Origin: a virus | DNA: 19,146 nucleotides | Direction: 5' to 3' (one strand) | UHGV virus genome: UHGV-1607510 | Shown here: positions 7,813-12,674 of the stretch, piece by piece | Numbering within the stretch: position 1 is the stretch's first letter | Layout of the letters: the number at the start of each line of letters is the position of its first letter | Made by a program: the position numbers and the translations under genes | The notes under the pieces: model-generated | Told to the model about the DNA's origin: nothing | The model's database searches: none | The model's input: the letters and a program-made list of their open reading frames with translations, nothing else

Positions 7813-7890
7813 AATTACTCCTGTGGATTGATCCAGTCTTTCTACATCAGGCCTCAAAACTGTTGCAGCAGTCTTGAGGCTTTTCTTTTG
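7810..7890 (+). ncRNA. oop-like antisense RNA overlapping the cII 3' end (promoter tentative)
   Basis: Plus-strand intrinsic terminator GCCTCAA-(16-nt loop with internal CTG/CAG pairing)-TTGAGGC followed by TTTTCTTTTG at 7851-7889, antisense to the last codons of cII. A candidate -10 CATAAT at 7810-7815 would give a 65-75 nt transcript, comparable to the 77-nt lambda OOP RNA. Confidence 0.5.
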
Positions 7891-8125
7891 TCAGCACCAT
7901 GGCTACTTTCTTTGCCAGCTCCGCTAATTCCTCGTCTTCAACACCCCACTCCAGCACAGCCAGAAGCATGGCCATCTTTGGGATAAAACTGTCTTTCCAT
8001 CGCGAAATTTGCGATTCATTAATCCCTAACGCGTCGGCAACCTTTCGCTGACCACGTACAGCAATTCGATTTAGGATGTTGCTTGTAATTGCATTCGCTT
8101 TCTTGCGAGTACTTGTAAGTTGCAT
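7847..8125 (-). CDS. cII: CII-like transcriptional activator
   Basis: 92-aa product MQLTSTRKKANAITSNILNRIAVRGQRKVADALGINESQISRWKDSFIPKMAMLLAVLEWGVEDEELAELAKKVA... from ATG 8125 (AAGGAAAT RBS upstream). The central region matches lambda CII (KSQISRWKRDWIPKFSMLLAVLEWGV). The track ORF is longer and runs through nutR. Confidence 0.8.
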   Translation of the reverse strand: MQLTSTRKKANAITSNILNRIAVRGQRKVADALGINESQISRWKDSFIPKMAMLLAVLEWGVEDEELAELAKKVAMVLTKEKPQDCCNSFEA

Positions 8126-8135
8126 ATGTAAGTAT
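8103..8135 (+). promoter_or_regulatory. pRE-like CII-activated promoter
   Basis: Plus-strand TTGCgagtacTTGT (TTGC-N6-TTGT) lies in cII codons 3-8, followed 12 nt later by TAAGTAT. The spacing and -10 match lambda pRE (TTGCGTTTGTTTGC then CATATGTAAGTAT) as recalled. Confidence 0.5.
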
Positions 8136-8184
8136 TTCCTTAACAAATAAGAAGTTATGCGCATCAAATTATGCGCGTTGTATT

Positions 8185-8227
8185 CCCGCATTTCGGCGGG
8201 AATGAGGACCATGACTGTTAAAGAGCG
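8185..8227 (-). promoter_or_regulatory. nutR site (boxA CGCTCTTTAACA plus boxB hairpin CCCGC-CGAAAT-GCGGG)
   Basis: Minus-strand sequence between the cro stop and cII start: CGCTCTTTAACA-gtcatggtcctcatt-CCCGCCGAAATGCGGG. The boxB is identical to the one upstream of N. Confidence 0.65.
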
Positions 8228-8233
8228 GTGTTA

Positions 8234-8428
8234 CTATTTGTTTTTCTTGTTGCTTGGGAAAGGACGAACTTCCTCTCCAATCACACTGCCATCAGGCTTT
8301 ACCGTAACCATGATGTTACGGCCTGCCAGAATGGCCTTGCTGATAGCGCACTGGATTACACCAAAGTCACTGGCTGCTTTAGCCTGTCCATGGATTTTGG
8401 CGTAATCGGCAAGTGTCATTCGAATCAT
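8234..8428 (-). CDS. cro: Cro repressor (lambda-Cro fold)
   Basis: 64-aa product [64 protein letters not shown] from ATG 8428 (GGAGAG with a 5-nt spacer). Aligns with lambda Cro ([59 protein letters not shown]). Confidence 0.8.
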
Positions 8429-8457
8429 ATGCACTCTCCGTTATTAACCATGAACAA

Positions 8458-8499
8458 AGAATACTACAGGTATTCAAAGCAATCAATACTCAGGGTATT
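8458..8499 (-). promoter_or_regulatory. PR promoter with operators OR1 and OR2
   Basis: Minus-strand -35 TTGATT (8486..8481), 17-bp spacer, -10 TATTCT (8463..8458). OR1 AATACTACAGGTATT at 8460-8474 overlaps the -10; OR2 AATACTCAGGGTATT at 8485-8499 overlaps the -35. Centre-to-centre spacing is 25 bp. Confidence 0.6.
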
Positions 8500-8534
8500 T
8501 TTAGTTTAAGTACCTTAGCTATTAGAATTAAGCT
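8500..8534 (+). promoter_or_regulatory. PRM-like promoter for a leaderless cI mRNA, with possible OR3
   Basis: -10-like TAGAAT at 8523-8528, 7 nt before the cI ATG, with no Shine-Dalgarno. A degenerate operator-like AGTACCTTAGCTATT lies at 8509-8523. This is the lambda PRM arrangement. Confidence 0.45.
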
Positions 8535-9251
8535 ATGGAAAATAAAAAATCACTGACGACAGAACAGCTGGAAGACGCTAAGCGGCTTAAGGCTTTGTAT
8601 GAGTCAAAAAAGAAAGAATTGGGAATAACCCAATACTCAATCGCTGATGAACTGGGTATCACCCAAGGAGCGGTAGGGCATTATCTTAATGGCAGAAATG
8701 CGCTAAACGTTGAGGTTGCATCTGGTTTTGCACGATTGTTGCAAGTCTCAATTGCTGATTTTAGCCAGTCAATTGCTGCCAAGGTTGCAGAACAGGCAGA
8801 AAGCCTTAAGAGCGATGCCAACGTAAGGTATGCAGGGGAATACAGAGCAGGAAAGAGGTATCCGGTGTTAAGCAGTATCCAGGCTGGCTCGTGGTGTGAA
8901 GCATGCGAACCATACACCATTAAAGACATAGATGTTTGGCTTGAGTCTGACGCGCATATTCAAGGTAATGCGTTCTGGCTTAAAGTGGAAGGTGATTCAA
9001 TGACGGCACCGGTTGGGTTAAGCATTCCAGAGGGAACATTCGTTCTTTTCGATACCGGAAGGGAGGCAATCAACGGCAGCTTGGTCATAGCAAAACTTTC
9101 TGACTCTAACGAAGCAACATTCAAGAAGCTGATAATCGACGGCGGAAATAAATACCTCAAGGGACTTAATCCTGCATGGCCTCTCGTGCCAATCAATGGA
9201 AACTGCAAGATTATAGGCGTTGCAATTGAGACAAAACTCAGACTGGTTTGA
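8535..9251 (+). CDS. cI: CI prophage repressor (HTH plus S24 LexA-like autopeptidase domain)
   Basis: 238-aa ORF with HTH (ITQYSIADELGITQGAVGHYLNG), Ala-Gly cleavage site (SIQAGSW), catalytic Ser (VEGDSMTAPVG) and Lys (ATFKKLI). Collinear with lambda CI (TQEQLEDARRLKAIYEKKK...). Confidence 0.9.
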   Translation: MENKKSLTTEQLEDAKRLKALYESKKKELGITQYSIADELGITQGAVGHYLNGRNALNVEVASGFARLLQVSIADFSQSIAAKVAEQAESLKSDANVRYAGEYRAGKRYPVLSSIQAGSWCEACEPYTIKDIDVWLESDAHIQGNAFWLKVEGDSMTAPVGLSIPEGTFVLFDTGREAINGSLVIAKLSDSNEATFKKLIIDGGNKYLKGLNPAWPLVPINGNCKIIGVAIETKLRLV

Positions 9252-9268
9252 TCACGCAAGGGGCGAAT

Positions 9269-9637
9269 ATGGTTGGAACCGCTATAGCAAGCTTTTTAGG
9301 GATGTTGGCAATATCGACAATTTACTGCTTAGCGCATGCTTTTATTGCGAAATCTCTATCAGAAAAAATAAGCCAGGCTTGGGCGCATAGATCAGCTCGT
9401 TTCATGATTCTGGTGATCATAGCAATACAAGGGATATCTGCATTTATCCTCTATGGATCAAGCTTATACCTATTGTATCAAGGCGCGACATTTACGCCTT
9501 ACACCAGTGATTACGGAACCCTATACGATGGTAGTGAAGACATCTCTATGGCTTGGATCGTCTTTGGTTTATCTATGGCCGTGTCTGTTGTAGCAGACAT
9601 CATTAAGGTAATTCTCGTCTTAACCTTCGCTGACTAA
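9269..9637 (+). CDS. Small integral membrane protein (122 aa, 3 predicted TM helices) downstream of cI
   Basis: ATG 9269 with AAGGGG RBS (5-nt spacer), 17 nt after the cI stop. Hydrophobic segments VGTAIASFLGMLAISTIYCLAHAFIA, FMILVIIAIQGISAFILYGSSLYLLY and AWIVFGLSMAVSVVADIIKVILVLTF. The track start (TTG at 9248) overlaps the cI stop and is less likely. Confidence 0.6.
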   Translation: MVGTAIASFLGMLAISTIYCLAHAFIAKSLSEKISQAWAHRSARFMILVIIAIQGISAFILYGSSLYLLYQGATFTPYTSDYGTLYDGSEDISMAWIVFGLSMAVSVVADIIKVILVLTFAD

Positions 9638-9769
9638 CCCATAATCCCGGAAGCAATAGCTATCGGGATCCACTTCACATATCCCGCATAAAAAGCACTG
9701 AACAAGCAGACACCGAAAAAAATAAATATCCTTTGTATTCATTTGTTTATCATTATTTCATCAAAAATA

Positions 9770-9811
9770 AATACCTTGGGTATTTACACAATAAAATACC
9801 TACAGTATTCT
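9770..9811 (+). promoter_or_regulatory. PL promoter with operators OL2 and OL1
   Basis: -35 TTTACA (9783-9788), 17-bp spacer, -10 TATTCT (9806-9811). OL2 AATACCTTGGGTATT at 9770-9784 and OL1 AATACCTACAGTATT at 9795-9809, spaced 25 bp as at OR. A degenerate third site AATATCCTTTGTATT lies at 9725-9739. Confidence 0.6.
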
Positions 9812-9857
9812 TTAGCCATCAGCAGGACGCTGGTAGCCAAACGGAACAGATTGGCAG

Positions 9858-9897
9858 GCTCTTTAACATTGATGGGATTGTCCCGCCGAAATGCGGG
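9858..9897 (+). promoter_or_regulatory. nutL site (boxA GCTCTTTAACA plus boxB CCCGCCGAAATGCGGG)
   Basis: boxA at 9858-9868 matches the rrn/lambdoid boxA consensus. boxB at 9882-9897 is identical to the nutR boxB. Located between PL and the N-like gene. Confidence 0.7.
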
Positions 9898-10005
9898 AAC
9901 CAAAGAGTAGTTGGCTTTGGGGTGACGTGAAGTGCAGATGCACGACGGCAACCGGAAGATAAGCACCCGGCGCGTCACCGCCAAAGTCAATCATCGGAGG
10001 TCAAC

Positions 10006-10278
10006 ATGACAGTAGTCATTACATATCTGGCTGACGATAACGCCAGAAATCGCCGCAGAGCACGCAGACAGGCTCAACGTGAACAGGCAATGCAAGAACA
10101 GCGACTGGCGCGAAAGATTGCGCTAAAGCTCTCTGGTTGCGTCAGAGCAGATAAAGCAGCATCACTCGGAAGCCTTCGCTGCAAGAAGGCAGATGAATGC
10201 AGTGGAAGTATTTGCCTGCCAAACGTAGCCATTTACGCGGCAGGCTACCGGAAATCAAAACAACTGACAGCCAGGTAA
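10006..10278 (+). CDS. N-like transcription antiterminator (P22 gene 24 type)
   Basis: 90-aa ORF with GGAGG RBS and an N-terminal arginine-rich motif (NARNRRRARRQAQREQ). First gene after PL-nutL. The C-terminus VAIYAAGYRKSKQLTAR resembles P22 gp24 as recalled. Confidence 0.75.
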   Translation: MTVVITYLADDNARNRRRARRQAQREQAMQEQRLARKIALKLSGCVRADKAASLGSLRCKKADECSGSICLPNVAIYAAGYRKSKQLTAR

Positions 10279-10281
10279 GTG

Positions 10282-10506
10282 ATGAATCAGACATACATTC
10301 CATCATGCTTGAGAAATCTGCCAAAGCAGAAAGCAAAGCCCCGCAAGCAAGCCATAAAGGACGCTAAGGCAGAGGTTATTGATCAAGCAATACAATTGCT
10401 CAGGGAGGAGTTAAGAAGTGGCAAGCTCGAAGGAATGATGATGCCCTATCAGCGCGGATATCTATCGGCGATTAGTAAGTTGGAAGTATTGAAGAGTGAA
10501 TTATGA
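10282..10506 (+). CDS. Hypothetical small helical, Lys-rich protein (74 aa)
   Basis: ATG 10282 directly after the N stop. Product MNQTYIPSCLRNLPKQKAKPRKQAIKDAKAEVIDQAIQLLREELRSGKLEGMMMPYQRGYLSAISKLEVLKSEL. Stop overlaps the next start (ATGA). Confidence 0.5.
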   Translation: MNQTYIPSCLRNLPKQKAKPRKQAIKDAKAEVIDQAIQLLREELRSGKLEGMMMPYQRGYLSAISKLEVLKSEL

Positions 10507-11039
10507 ACTATCTGGAATTTCCGGATGGTTCATTGTTTTGGCAGCAAACCACTTATTTGAGGCGAGATATGAGAAAATCATGGAACGTACCTTTTCCTGA
10601 ATCAGAAACTGAACATGATGGAATGCCTGTTTTCTGGAGATTCCAGGCGACAGTTGAAGAAGATGGAATCAAAATATTCGCACTTCAATATATAGCTTTT
10701 CATCAGACAGAGCATTATGCATGGTTGGTTCCTGCGCATTGGATTGTTGATTTTAAACCAGCACCAAATCAGTGGTTACGGGAATGGAAACAAAGGATAA
10801 ATAGATATGCAATTAAGAAAGTAGCAAAAAATGCAGAAAGATCTTTTGCATTCCCAACGAAGAAACTTGCCATTGAGAGCTTATTGCGCCGGAAGAAATA
10901 CCATTTAATAAGAATCAAACAAGATTTGGCTGTTGTATCAACTCTTGTTGATGGGATGAAGAATATTGATACATCAACACCAGATATTGAATATAATTTT
11001 GGACACAACCAAGAAACAGAAAATTGGGTATTCTACTAG
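10503..11039 (+). CDS. Hypothetical protein (178 aa), AT-rich gene
   Basis: ORF MNYLEFPDGSLFWQQTTYLRRDMRKSWNVPFPESETEHDGMPVFWRFQATVEEDGIKIFALQYIAFHQTEHYAWLVPAHW... The 3' half is visibly more AT-rich than the neighbouring phage genes. Followed by an intrinsic terminator. Confidence 0.6.
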   Translation: MNYLEFPDGSLFWQQTTYLRRDMRKSWNVPFPESETEHDGMPVFWRFQATVEEDGIKIFALQYIAFHQTEHYAWLVPAHWIVDFKPAPNQWLREWKQRINRYAIKKVAKNAERSFAFPTKKLAIESLLRRKKYHLIRIKQDLAVVSTLVDGMKNIDTSTPDIEYNFGHNQETENWVFY

Positions 11040-11570: not shown

Positions 11571-11665
11571 GCACTGTGTATTCATTCCAACGAGTGAATA
11601 CACGGAGCAATGTCGCTCGTAACTAAACAGGAGCCGACTTGTTCTGATTATTGGAAATCTTCTTT

Positions 11666-11693
11666 GCCCTCCAATGTGAGGGCAGTTTTTTTT
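11666..11693 (+). terminator. Intrinsic terminator immediately upstream of the coiled-coil gene
   Basis: GCCCTC-CAATGT-GAGGGC followed by AGTTTTTTTT. It ends 13 nt before the GGAGG RBS of the next gene. Confidence 0.6.
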
Positions 11694-11705
11694 GACGGAG
11701 GATAT

Positions 11706-12674
11706 ATGAGTGAAGTAACAGATTTAGTTGTTATTGAAAAAGCAAATGCAATGACTGTATTTCAGTCTGCCGACCAGATTGAAGAAATTCTCCAAAAGGT
11801 TGAACGTGAAGTTATGTCCTTTGTGCCTGATATCACAACGGCAAAGGGCAGAAAGGAGATCGCTTCTCTGGCGTATAAAGTTGCGCAGACGAAAACATAT
11901 CTCGATGGTCTTGGCAAAGACCTTGTTGCTGAACTGAAGGAAATTCCAAAGCTAATTGATGCCAACCGCAAGACAGTGCGTGATCGCCTTGATGAGCTGA
12001 AAGCCAAGGCACGCCAGCCTCTTACTGATTATGAGGAAGAACAGGCGCGGATTAAAGCCGAAGAAGAAGCTAAGGCAGCAGCTGAAGCTCTCGCAAAGCA
12101 AATTGAGTCTGACCATGAAATAGCGATTTTGATGGATCGAGAATTTGACCGCCAAAGAGAAGAGACAAGACTCAAAGCGGAGCAGGAAAAGCGAGAGCAT
12201 GAAGAACGCTTAAAAAGAGAAGCTGAAGAGAAAGCCAGAGCTGAAGCCGAAGCAAAGGCAAAAGCCGAAATTGAAGCAGCAGCAAGGCGAGAAGCAGAAG
12301 CTAAGGCAGCAGCGGAACGTGCAGAGCGTGAACGCATTGAAGCCGAGCAACGAGCACAGCGCGAAGCAAAAGAGGCAGCAGAACGAGCTGAAAGAGAAAA
12401 GCAGGCGGCAATTGAAGCAGAACGCAGAAAAGCACAGGAGGAGGCTGAACGAATCCGTCGCGAGGCTGAAGCAAAAGAGCAAGCCAGAATAGCAGAAGAA
12501 AAAAGAATCAAGGACGAAGAAGAGCGTAGAGCAAAGGATAAAGCTCACCGGAAAGAAGTAAATAACAAAATACTTGCTGACCTTATCAAGGTTGGCGCAT
12601 CAGAAGATGTTGCTAAAAATATCATAACAGCCATCGTAAAAGGCGAAGTATTCGCAACAAAAATAACCTACTAA
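11706..12674 (+). CDS. Coiled-coil protein with a long Glu/Ala/Lys/Arg-rich low-complexity repeat region (322 aa)
   Basis: ATG 11706 with GGAGG RBS. The track start at 11610 reads through the upstream terminator and is rejected. N-terminal globular part (MSEVTDLVVIEKANAMTVFQSADQIEEILQKVEREV...), then about 150 aa of EAEAKAKAE/AERAERE-type repeats, then a C-terminal tail. Confidence 0.65.
   Translation: MSEVTDLVVIEKANAMTVFQSADQIEEILQKVEREVMSFVPDITTAKGRKEIASLAYKVAQTKTYLDGLGKDLVAELKEIPKLIDANRKTVRDRLDELKAKARQPLTDYEEEQARIKAEEEAKAAAEALAKQIESDHEIAILMDREFDRQREETRLKAEQEKREHEERLKREAEEKARAEAEAKAKAEIEAAARREAEAKAAAERAERERIEAEQRAQREAKEAAERAEREKQAAIEAERRKAQEEAERIRREAEAKEQARIAEEKRIKDEEERRAKDKAHRKEVNNKILADLIKVGASEDVAKNIITAIVKGEVFATKITY

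Follow-up and report, generated by a model that had tools for sequence, protein, structure and literature searches.

hkaS, a predicted inner-membrane protein gene in the cI operon of HK620-type lambdoid prophages and a candidate for phage exclusion

The window analysed here is the whole 19,146-nt stretch of the virus genome UHGV-1607510, and its immunity region has the lambda layout in a leftward reading. The upstream flank has cro (Pfam Cro, 3.8e-26), cII, O and a gene for a DnaB-type helicase, all on the opposite strand. The features from the right operator to the antiterminator gene are these:

8459-8524, no strand assigned: OR operator region with OR1-OR3, containing PR and, by analogy with lambda, PRM (HK620 annotation transferred by constant offset)
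8535-9251, plus strand: cI repressor, 238 aa, with an N-terminal HTH and a C-terminal S24 autocleavage domain (Pfam HTH_3, 8e-10; Peptidase_S24, 5e-24)
9252-9268, plus strand: cI-hkaS spacer of 17 nt with the Shine-Dalgarno sequence AAGGGG at 9258-9263 (read from the sequence)
9269-9637, plus strand: hkaS, encoding a 122-aa predicted inner-membrane protein (ORF, hydropathy, AlphaFold2, homologues)
9644-9669, plus strand: stem-loop just 3' of the hkaS stop, the probable end of the immunity transcript with the function of tIMM (inverted repeat, present in the minimum-free-energy fold)
9723-9811, plus strand: OL operators at 9723-9739, 9768-9784 and 9793-9809, with PL (repeat family, promoter scan, agreement with HK620 OL2/OL1/pL)
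Between PL and N: boxA/boxB of nutL
10006-10278: gene for an N-type antiterminator (Pfam N_peptide, 1e-15)

The OR region has direct repeats at 8455-8474 and 8480-8499 of the type AATAC-N-GGTATT, and PRM, which we place within it by comparison with lambda, would be the promoter for cI and hkaS in a lysogen. The encoded repressor is 99.6% identical to that of coliphage HK620. On the far side, OL/PL forms the downstream boundary of the slot, with a PL-like promoter at 9783-9811 made up of a -35 TTTACA, a 17-nt spacer and a -10 TATTCT. OL3 as placed by the HK620 authors lies about 24 nt further right than the third repeat found here. The slot between cI and OL holds hkaS alone, as compared with rexA-rexB in lambda. 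An initial annotation of this DNA had described a small 122-aa protein with three transmembrane helices in the rexAB position 3' of cI, and the coordinates, hydropathy, an AlphaFold2 model and collinearity with HK620 all bear that description out; its claim that a single gene fills the slot also stands, as there is no other ORF between cI and OL. An Rfam scan of 8200-10400 gave no match. GC content was considered as a sign that hkaS is recently acquired cargo and was discarded, because the difference (41.7% compared with 45.2% for cI) is too small.

The hkaS reading frame runs on the plus strand from the ATG at 9269 to the TAA at 9635-9637, a length of 122 codons. The program-made list of open reading frames begins the same frame at TTG 9248, giving 129 aa. 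Sequence context supports ATG 9269 as the start over TTG 9248, because AAGGGG precedes it and because the diverged homologues all begin at the equivalent M-[VIM]-G. In those homologues the start lies 17-20 nt past the cI stop of the same locus and has a purine-rich Shine-Dalgarno sequence of its own; a gap length that cannot be divided by 3 means that the extension upstream of the ATG lacks conservation at the protein level.

The initial annotation took the protein to be expressed in the lysogen, and at the level of architecture hkaS is arranged for co-transcription with cI. Promoter and terminator scans gave no sigma-70-like promoter and no terminator-like site between cI and hkaS, and the short spacer with its own Shine-Dalgarno sequence is kept in all homologues. 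Furthermore, every homologue has a hairpin a few bases past the hkaS stop, the sequence of which differs by lineage (Salmonella, Hafnia-type, Buttiauxella). In the Buttiauxella locus this is a canonical terminator with a GC stem and T6. In the window and in HK620 it has a 7+3 bp stem without a U tract, and a scan of the window for a canonical intrinsic terminator after hkaS found only this hairpin. The hairpin at 9644-9669 is the probable end of the immunity transcript, a call that is weak because of the missing U tract, and its termination efficiency in the window is uncertain. Judged by this arrangement, the repressor operon has two cistrons, of which hkaS is the second, and reads OR/PRM, cI, 17 nt with a Shine-Dalgarno sequence, hkaS, hairpin, OL/PL. 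We also considered whether relatives carry extra cargo inserted after hkaS and rejected the idea: their length differences between hkaS and N come from insertions that all fall past nutL, at window positions 9900/9901, 9921 or 9991, and thus map to the N leader, with none among cI, hkaS and OL.

The gene itself is already catalogued. Its product is 96.7% identical in amino acids to that of HK620 hkaS (GenBank AF335538, protein AAK28867), a gene that the HK620 record labels 'unknown' between flanks annotated cI, tIMM, OL, pL, nutL and N. Identity to HK620 DNA is 98-99% from cro to N, and the part from cI to N is 99% identical and collinear; the genes after N differ between the two. The profile of PHROG 6534, to which no function is assigned, matches at E 3.1e-78 with residues 1-122 on positions 1-122 of 122, and in the 525-member cluster that holds HkaS every database name is 'hypothetical protein'. 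By these matches the window gene is hkaS of HK620 / PHROG 6534 and is not new as a gene, so that the protein does have a family, contrary to the initial view that it could be assigned to none. A search of the accessible literature for hkaS together with HK620 found no paper, and papers on HK620, the mEp phages, the SieA system, BstA and Hex yielded nothing on hkaS.

Sequence searches outline a small family. A word-indexed search of 5.8 billion proteins returned 11 clusters at 90% identity, the most distant of them 54-59% identical to HkaS, and a profile search run exhaustively over 1.84 billion representatives at 50% identity added one further genuine cluster and a 44-aa fragment. A third profile hit, the 5949-aa protein P0014, was dismissed as an artefact of nine identical 27-aa repeats contributing about 7 bits each to a summed score. 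Sequence searches of Pfam, NCBIfam, PADLOC and the PDB gave nothing above threshold, and the 5027 models of PADLOC-DB 2.0 included no family at E <= 1. A Pfam match to Cation_ATPase_C (18.4 bits compared with a cut-off of 27.3) was taken as generic similarity between transmembrane helices. Foldseek against BFVD and the PDB found nothing at E <= 0.001 and returned only generic helix bundles, and hhalign gave probabilities of 0.2% for lambda RexB, 0.25% for P22 SieA and 0.06% for 434 Hex. The homology search that the initial annotation had proposed thus turned up a family without an attached function, HkaS/PHROG 6534, and no match to a known defence or exclusion protein. On this evidence the HkaS family is a narrow orphan of Enterobacterales prophages.

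In E. coli the gene is common. It occurs in 146 of 5426 complete E. coli genomes (about 2.7%), at 147 places that are always chromosomal, and each of the 146 matching records spans 80% of it or more. It is also found in 16 phage records, including the named phages HK620, HK630, HK140, mEpX2, HF4s, HZ41 and vB_EcoP-611R6, together with two Stx2c-converting phages and two EHEC-derived Traversvirus phages. The hosts given by the sources are Escherichia, Salmonella, Enterobacter, Hafnia and Buttiauxella. The carriers span podovirus (HK620, HF4s), siphovirus (HK630) and Stx-phage backbones, HK630 being presumably a siphovirus from its near-lambda genome.

A set of 82 hkaS copies, comprising the window, HK620 and 80 IMG/VR contigs, shows how closely the gene is kept. 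All 82 are full-length and gapless, without a frameshift or premature stop, and they resolve into 38 alleles at the DNA level and 23 at the protein level, the latter separated only by conservative substitutions such as I/V/L/M, S/T and A/S. The window allele has G20C, which is unique among the copies examined. When the window gene was set against homologues 81% and 59% identical, a comparison in which dS is saturated in part, dN/dS was 0.14 relative to the Hafnia-type homologue (81% amino acid identity); it was 0.20 between the Hafnia-type and Salmonella homologues. The dS values of hkaS and cI are nearly equal (0.72 and 0.74), which indicates that the two genes share one history, and dN is about four times higher for hkaS (0.10 compared with 0.024, and 0.34 compared with 0.085). 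Judged by these rates, hkaS is a genuine gene under purifying selection that is weaker than the selection on cI. In favour of a functionless passenger ORF, kept only through its tight linkage to cI, is this same fourfold divergence at the amino acid level. Against such a passenger are the dN/dS values of 0.14-0.20 even with saturated dS, the complete absence of frameshifts, stops and deletions in the 82 fetched copies, the coverage of at least 80% in the 146 E. coli records, and 45 residues that are invariant across sequences 54-81% identical. We therefore regard it as very improbable that hkaS is a mere passenger.

The gene keeps constant company. In E. coli, cI, hkaS and a 401-nt fragment across their junction are each found in 146 genomes at 147 places, and cI lies directly upstream of hkaS in 79 of the 79 IMG/VR loci that include upstream DNA, as it does in the Salmonella, Hafnia-type, Buttiauxella and Logan loci. 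The Salmonella and Hafnia-type relatives retain cI (86-96% identical), cro (79-87%) and hkaS (59-81%), with N (23-38%) and cII (19-42%) exchanged. The Buttiauxella locus has a different cI N-terminal DNA-binding domain and a different cro, followed by the same S24 C-terminal domain and then hkaS (54% identity), which suggests that the conserved unit is the cI C-terminal domain plus hkaS and not the immunity specificity. In these loci, hkaS and the C-terminal portion of a single cI family move together in lambdoid prophages, whatever the virion type.

The repressors with the closest C-terminal domains (CTDs) that are not followed by hkaS have other contents in the slot:

Enterobacter phage ENT1 (cI-CTD 84% identical): a 127-aa Cys-rich ORF and a 109-aa ORF for a C-terminally anchored coiled coil
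Erwinia phage Midgardsormr38 (83%): a P63C-domain protein
CharmingMan (80%): no sizeable gene
Cronobacter ENT39118 (77%): a 120-aa ORF
434 (72%): hex

In P22 the slot is empty and c2 abuts OL directly. Another relative listed, phage Huey, has the envelope enzyme PagP annotated next to its repressor. Because related repressors carry other cargo or none, hkaS is replaceable accessory cargo, and on the same comparison it is dispensable for the repressor itself. The differences among these six phages, ENT1, Midgardsormr38, CharmingMan, ENT39118, 434 and P22, agree with the initial annotation that slot cargo varies among lambdoid phages, and the literature agrees with its further statement that this slot houses exclusion or abortive-infection genes: PRM transcripts carry the accessory exclusion genes rexAB, 933W stk, 434 hex and BTP1 bstA (PMC3564112, PMC8585504). 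A similar remark has been made for genes 44 and 45 of epsilon34 (PMC2629481), and the interval between cI and N is described as a mosaic hotspot in PMC8585504, citing Degnan 2007.

The close tie to cI raises the question of whether HkaS modulates the carrier phage's own lysis-lysogeny switch or its induction, in the manner of Hex or Rex. The Buttiauxella locus, which keeps the cI C-terminal domain and hkaS together despite a different cI N-terminal domain and cro, would fit such a role. Hex likewise occupies this slot behind a cI with a 72% identical C-terminal domain, and in phage 434 it shields the repressor from RecA-stimulated cleavage (PMC3564112); a role of lambda RexA/RexB in the switch is reported in a preprint (bioRxiv 10.1101/2021.04.19.439022). 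However, the predicted cytoplasmic part of HkaS amounts to about 17 loop residues and 2 C-terminal residues, the protein has no similarity to Hex (hhalign 0.06%), cI C-terminal domains 77-84% identical work with unrelated cargo or with none, and a physical distance of 17-20 nt explains the linkage to the C-terminal domain equally well. A modulator of the switch is thus, in our judgement, quite unlikely.

The protein itself is predicted to be a polytopic membrane protein. Hydrophobic peaks in Kyte-Doolittle profiles (19-residue windows) cover about residues 3-27, 45-69 and 92-120, and an AlphaFold2 model built from only six input sequences (mean pLDDT 91) has helices at 2-29, 31-38, 41-74 and 89-121 with a short hairpin at 78-86. 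Hydropathy and model thus agree on three hydrophobic helices, the topology that the initial annotation had wished to see checked. Loop 1 (28-44) is basic, with K28, K33, R41 and R44; loop 2 (70-91) is acidic and Tyr-rich, with D81, D87, E90 and D91; and the C-terminus, which ends VLTFAD, extends 2 residues past the third helix. From the basic loop 1 and acidic loop 2 we infer, by the positive-inside rule, an N-out/C-in topology at the inner membrane with loop 1 inside and loop 2 outside. No catalytic motif is present, in keeping with the original description of a protein without an enzymatic motif, which the lack of any Pfam, NCBIfam or PADLOC family at threshold also supports.

The 45 invariant positions, counted across six sequences 54-81% identical, fall into groups. 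They include a face of the first helix (M1, G3, A5, S8, G11, M12, I15, S16, Y19), residues of the cytoplasmic loop (K33, Q36, W38, H40, R44, F45), Q54 in the second helix, an aromatic periplasmic belt (Y67, Y70, Y82, G83, Y86, G88, W96, F99), and the end of the third helix, with D110 and K113 and then I-x-VLTFAD to the last residue. Constraint acts on both faces of the membrane, as would fit specific partners or a gated function. A class I holin, which would share the three helices and the N-out/C-in topology, was rejected because HkaS lacks a charged cytoplasmic tail, is encoded in the immunity operon and not in a lysis cassette, and matches no holin profile; the only holin trace was a match of the Salmonella homologue alone to TIGR01593, at 12.9 bits with a cut-off of 40.2.

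Among known proteins of this slot, lambda RexB (PF15968) resembles HkaS in lying between cI and OL within the PRM operon, in being a small polytopic inner-membrane protein, and in being dispensable for lysogeny (PMC8585504). It is longer, at 144 aa compared with 122 aa and three helices for HkaS, and in lambda its partner RexA is encoded between cI and rexB, whereas the window has only 17 nt between cI and hkaS and no RexA. RexB has four helices. The Pfam RexB model finds lambda RexB at 8.5e-92 and gives no match to HkaS at E <= 1. The other characterized occupants, 434 Hex, 933W Stk and BTP1 BstA, have the same slot and the same expected expression with the repressor, and all three have been connected with the exclusion of heterologous phages (PMC3564112, PMC8585504). 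They are unrelated to HkaS, and none of them has three transmembrane helices: Hex, at 134 aa, has a signal-peptide-like hydrophobic start and no profile similarity to HkaS, Stk is a kinase, and BstA is a DNA-associated abortive-infection protein.

This comparison raises the possibility that HkaS is an abortive-infection effector, a latent oligomeric channel in the inner membrane that would open on infection and depolarise the cell, with a RexB-like outcome but without a RexA-type sensor. The slot and the operon logic would be those of rexAB (PMC8585504), and a membrane-anchored single-protein system in S. aureus prophages is described in PMC10127798. In the sequence, the invariant charged and polar residues inside helices (D110, K113, Q54) point in this direction, and the conserved small-residue faces (G3, A5, S8, G11 and S16; G100 and A104) are compatible with helix-helix oligomerisation. 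Nevertheless, HkaS is not a homologue of RexB and has three helices, not four; there is no partner gene in the slot; a constitutive channel that lacks a sensor needs a trigger, and the sequence suggests none; and PADLOC gave no hits. We consider an effector of this kind unlikely.

Alternatively, HkaS may serve the envelope of the lysogen and have no phage target, as a lysogenic conversion function. Examples would be an orphan immunity protein against a pore-forming colicin, a microcin or a CDI ionophore toxin, or a modulator of one of the host's membrane transporters or stress pathways. In size and architecture HkaS resembles the E1-type colicin immunity proteins, which lie in the inner membrane, measure about 100-115 aa and have three transmembrane helices. 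Strong retention, in 147 of 147 E. coli prophage copies, would also fit a benefit to the host, and the PagP annotation beside the repressor of Huey would point the same way. On the other hand, the immunity-protein families of Pfam and NCBIfam gave no match even at E <= 1, hkaS has no toxin gene linked to it, and the documented cargo of the slot is mostly phage-directed (PMC3564112, PMC8585504). Such a role in the envelope therefore seems improbable to us.

The explanation that we tentatively prefer, and regard as possible though distinctly less than probable, is that HkaS is a stand-alone superinfection-exclusion protein that would block the entry of phage DNA at the inner membrane. We favour it because the best-understood prophage proteins of like size and architecture act in this way, because the slot has a record of phage-directed cargo, and because the conserved periplasmic aromatic and acidic hairpin is a plausible contact surface for a phage conduit or an entry factor. 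T4 Imm is a similar inner-membrane exclusion protein. The SieA protein of P22 is expressed from the prophage, lies in the inner membrane with three predicted transmembrane domains, a number that HkaS shares by hydropathy and AlphaFold2 only, and blocks DNA injection alone; HK97 gp15 is cited in the SieA paper as acting likewise (PMC10883804). By this comparison SieA is the closest architectural and mechanistic analogue for the exclusion model. The two proteins also differ, since SieA has 162-164 aa and a cytoplasmic FxRYPxEAxxFNK motif (PMC10883804) that is absent from HkaS, and sieA has its own promoter and lies beside ejection-protein genes, whereas hkaS lies behind the repressor. They have no sequence relation (BLASTP E 29, hhalign 0.25%).

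In the proposed mechanism, HkaS would always be produced along with cI, with PRE as the promoter during establishment and PRM in the lysogen, and would insert N-out/C-in into the inner membrane. The conserved acidic, Tyr-rich hairpin (Y67, Y70, Y82, G83, Y86, G88, W96) would then face the periplasm, and the cytoplasmic side would present the conserved basic loop and the D110-x-x-K113...VLTFAD end. We speculate that HkaS might stop the genome of a superinfecting phage from crossing the inner membrane, in the manner of P22 SieA, HK97 gp15 and T4 Imm, and that its target might be the conduit of ejection proteins or tape measure, or an inner-membrane entry factor used by that conduit. The infected cell would not be killed by this action.

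Several observations count against superinfection exclusion. HkaS has no similarity to SieA or RexB, and no exclusion or defence model of Pfam, PHROG or PADLOC matched it. Known injection blockers such as sieA, HK97 gp15 and cor usually adjoin genes for the virion or tail and act on phages that enter the cell by a related apparatus. Unlike these blockers beside virion genes, hkaS goes with the immunity module, and because it does so across podovirus, siphovirus and Stx-phage backbones, its target cannot be read from its carriers. The invariant intramembrane residues D110, K113 and Q54 suit an ion-conducting or gated function equally well. Thus, HkaS is a reasonable candidate for an exclusion or abortive-infection determinant, and not the strong candidate that the initial annotation had proposed.

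A broader reading spans both kinds of action: HkaS may be the founding member of a new orphan family of single-gene, sensor-less inner-membrane anti-phage proteins wired into the repressor operon. We think this a substantial possibility that falls a little short of probable. Such a defence would be on exactly while the prophage is silent, and because hkaS travels with the immunity module and not with the virion module, it would act on heterologous phages, which might be hit at an inner-membrane step common to their genome entry or by a trigger based on membrane potential.

The architecture predicts constitutive expression of hkaS along with the repressor. Should the gene prove to act in exclusion or abortive infection, it would provide a compact, 369-bp, single-gene defence without homology to catalogued systems. 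Such a gene would be invisible to annotation of the PADLOC type and would bear on predictions of phage host range and of failed therapy in E. coli and Salmonella rich in prophages. The view of the cI-N interval as a hotspot of defence would gain a further example, and HkaS would offer a tractable small-membrane-protein model alongside SieA, Imm and gp15. If its role is ordinary, hkaS stays one of many prophage morons. HkaS would belong among the accessory membrane proteins of prophages that are cotranscribed with cI, a placement that will not surprise a specialist. Its carriers include Stx2c-converting and other EHEC-associated phages.

The interval between cI and OL, occupied by rexA-rexB in lambda and by hkaS in the window, carries other cargo in related phages, and two such loci bear on where its products may act.

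L100:1693-2097 (phage 434 locus), hex, annotated as a 134-aa 'repressor protection protein'
L094:2033-2749 (Enterobacter phage ENT1 locus, unannotated record), two-gene cassette

The N-terminus of the annotated 434 Hex is a hydrophobic stretch resembling a signal peptide (MIRIAALLSILLTTSANSEC...). This suggests an exported protein, a location that fits poorly with the effect proposed for Hex on RecA-stimulated cleavage of the repressor. In ENT1, the cassette lies downstream of a cI that shares 84% identity with the window cI in its C-terminal domain; one ORF of the cassette (127 aa) is Cys-rich (zinc-ribbon-like), and the other (109 aa) combines a Gly-rich stretch and a coiled coil with a hydrophobic anchor at the C-terminus. 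Taken together with RexB, HkaS and this membrane-anchored ENT1 ORF, Hex suggests that envelope-located cargo is common in the slot.

A further locus concerns the repressor itself.

L012:2333-3369 (uncultured Buttiauxella sp. contig CBCPKK010000004.1), hybrid repressor locus

Here, the N-terminal HTH domain and the neighbouring cro differ in type from those of the window, whereas the S24 C-terminal domain is a close relative of the window's and is followed downstream by hkaS (54% identity) and then a canonical terminator. This arrangement implies a recombination joint inside cI, between its HTH and S24 domains.

One profile-search hit to HkaS was rejected as a homologue. P0014, a 5949-aa repeat protein of the representative library, carries a 27-aa motif (SATFQTYSSGYTTLYEWKGANQIDVRW) similar to the periplasmic loop of HkaS (GATFTPYTSDYGTLYDGSEDISMAW) in nine identical repeats, and its library-wide E-value of 2.8e-07 stems from the summing of these repeats, each of which scores only about 7 bits.

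Several ORFs of the window also deserve comment.

Window 9620-9742, - strand, 40-aa antisense ORF that extends from around OL3 to overlap the 3' end of hkaS
Window 7847-8212, - strand, cII ORF, listed as 121 aa, Pfam Phage_CII match
Window 10503-11039, + strand, 178-aa ORF, PHROG 1636 match (no function assigned)
Window 11610-12674, + strand, 354-aa ORF, PHROG 1376/21365 (no function assigned)

The interval of the antisense ORF holds small annotated 'hypothetical proteins' in some phage records; for the antisense ORF itself we found nothing in support of gene status. The Phage_CII match starts at residue 29 of the cII ORF, and cII is 92-97 aa long in HK620, Salmonella and Buttiauxella versus the 121 aa listed for the window; the true start is probably an internal ATG (MQLTSTRKK...). 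The 178-aa ORF, which directly follows N and a 75-aa ORF, is strikingly AT-rich (GC 36.9%, GC3 30.7%, versus 46.9% for the window), occurs in only part of the relatives at varying distance from N, and has no match in PADLOC; it looks like a further candidate accessory gene of the PL operon. The 354-aa ORF has a long coiled-coil repeat region rich in Glu, Ala, Lys and Arg. RefSeq annotations for matches to the whole window include names such as 'coiled-coil domain-containing protein' and 'cell envelope biogenesis protein TolA', which probably designate this ORF.

Finally, the N leader (window 9900-9991) is, on sequence comparison, an insertion hotspot. Many relatives carry insertions of ~85-455 bp between nutL and the N start, at window 9900/9901, 9921 or 9991.

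L024:3632-3882 (a relative), example insertion after nutL, in the interval corresponding to window 9900-9991
Window 9911-9920/9981-9990 and 9916-9927/9973-9984, nested inverted repeats that form a long hairpin in the leader of the N mRNA

The L024 insert is ~250 nt long and apparently G+C-rich, with no obvious ORF by eye. The window hairpin (9911-9990), which has no match in Rfam, sits directly 5' of the N start and is reminiscent of the RNase III-sensitive structure in the lambda N leader.
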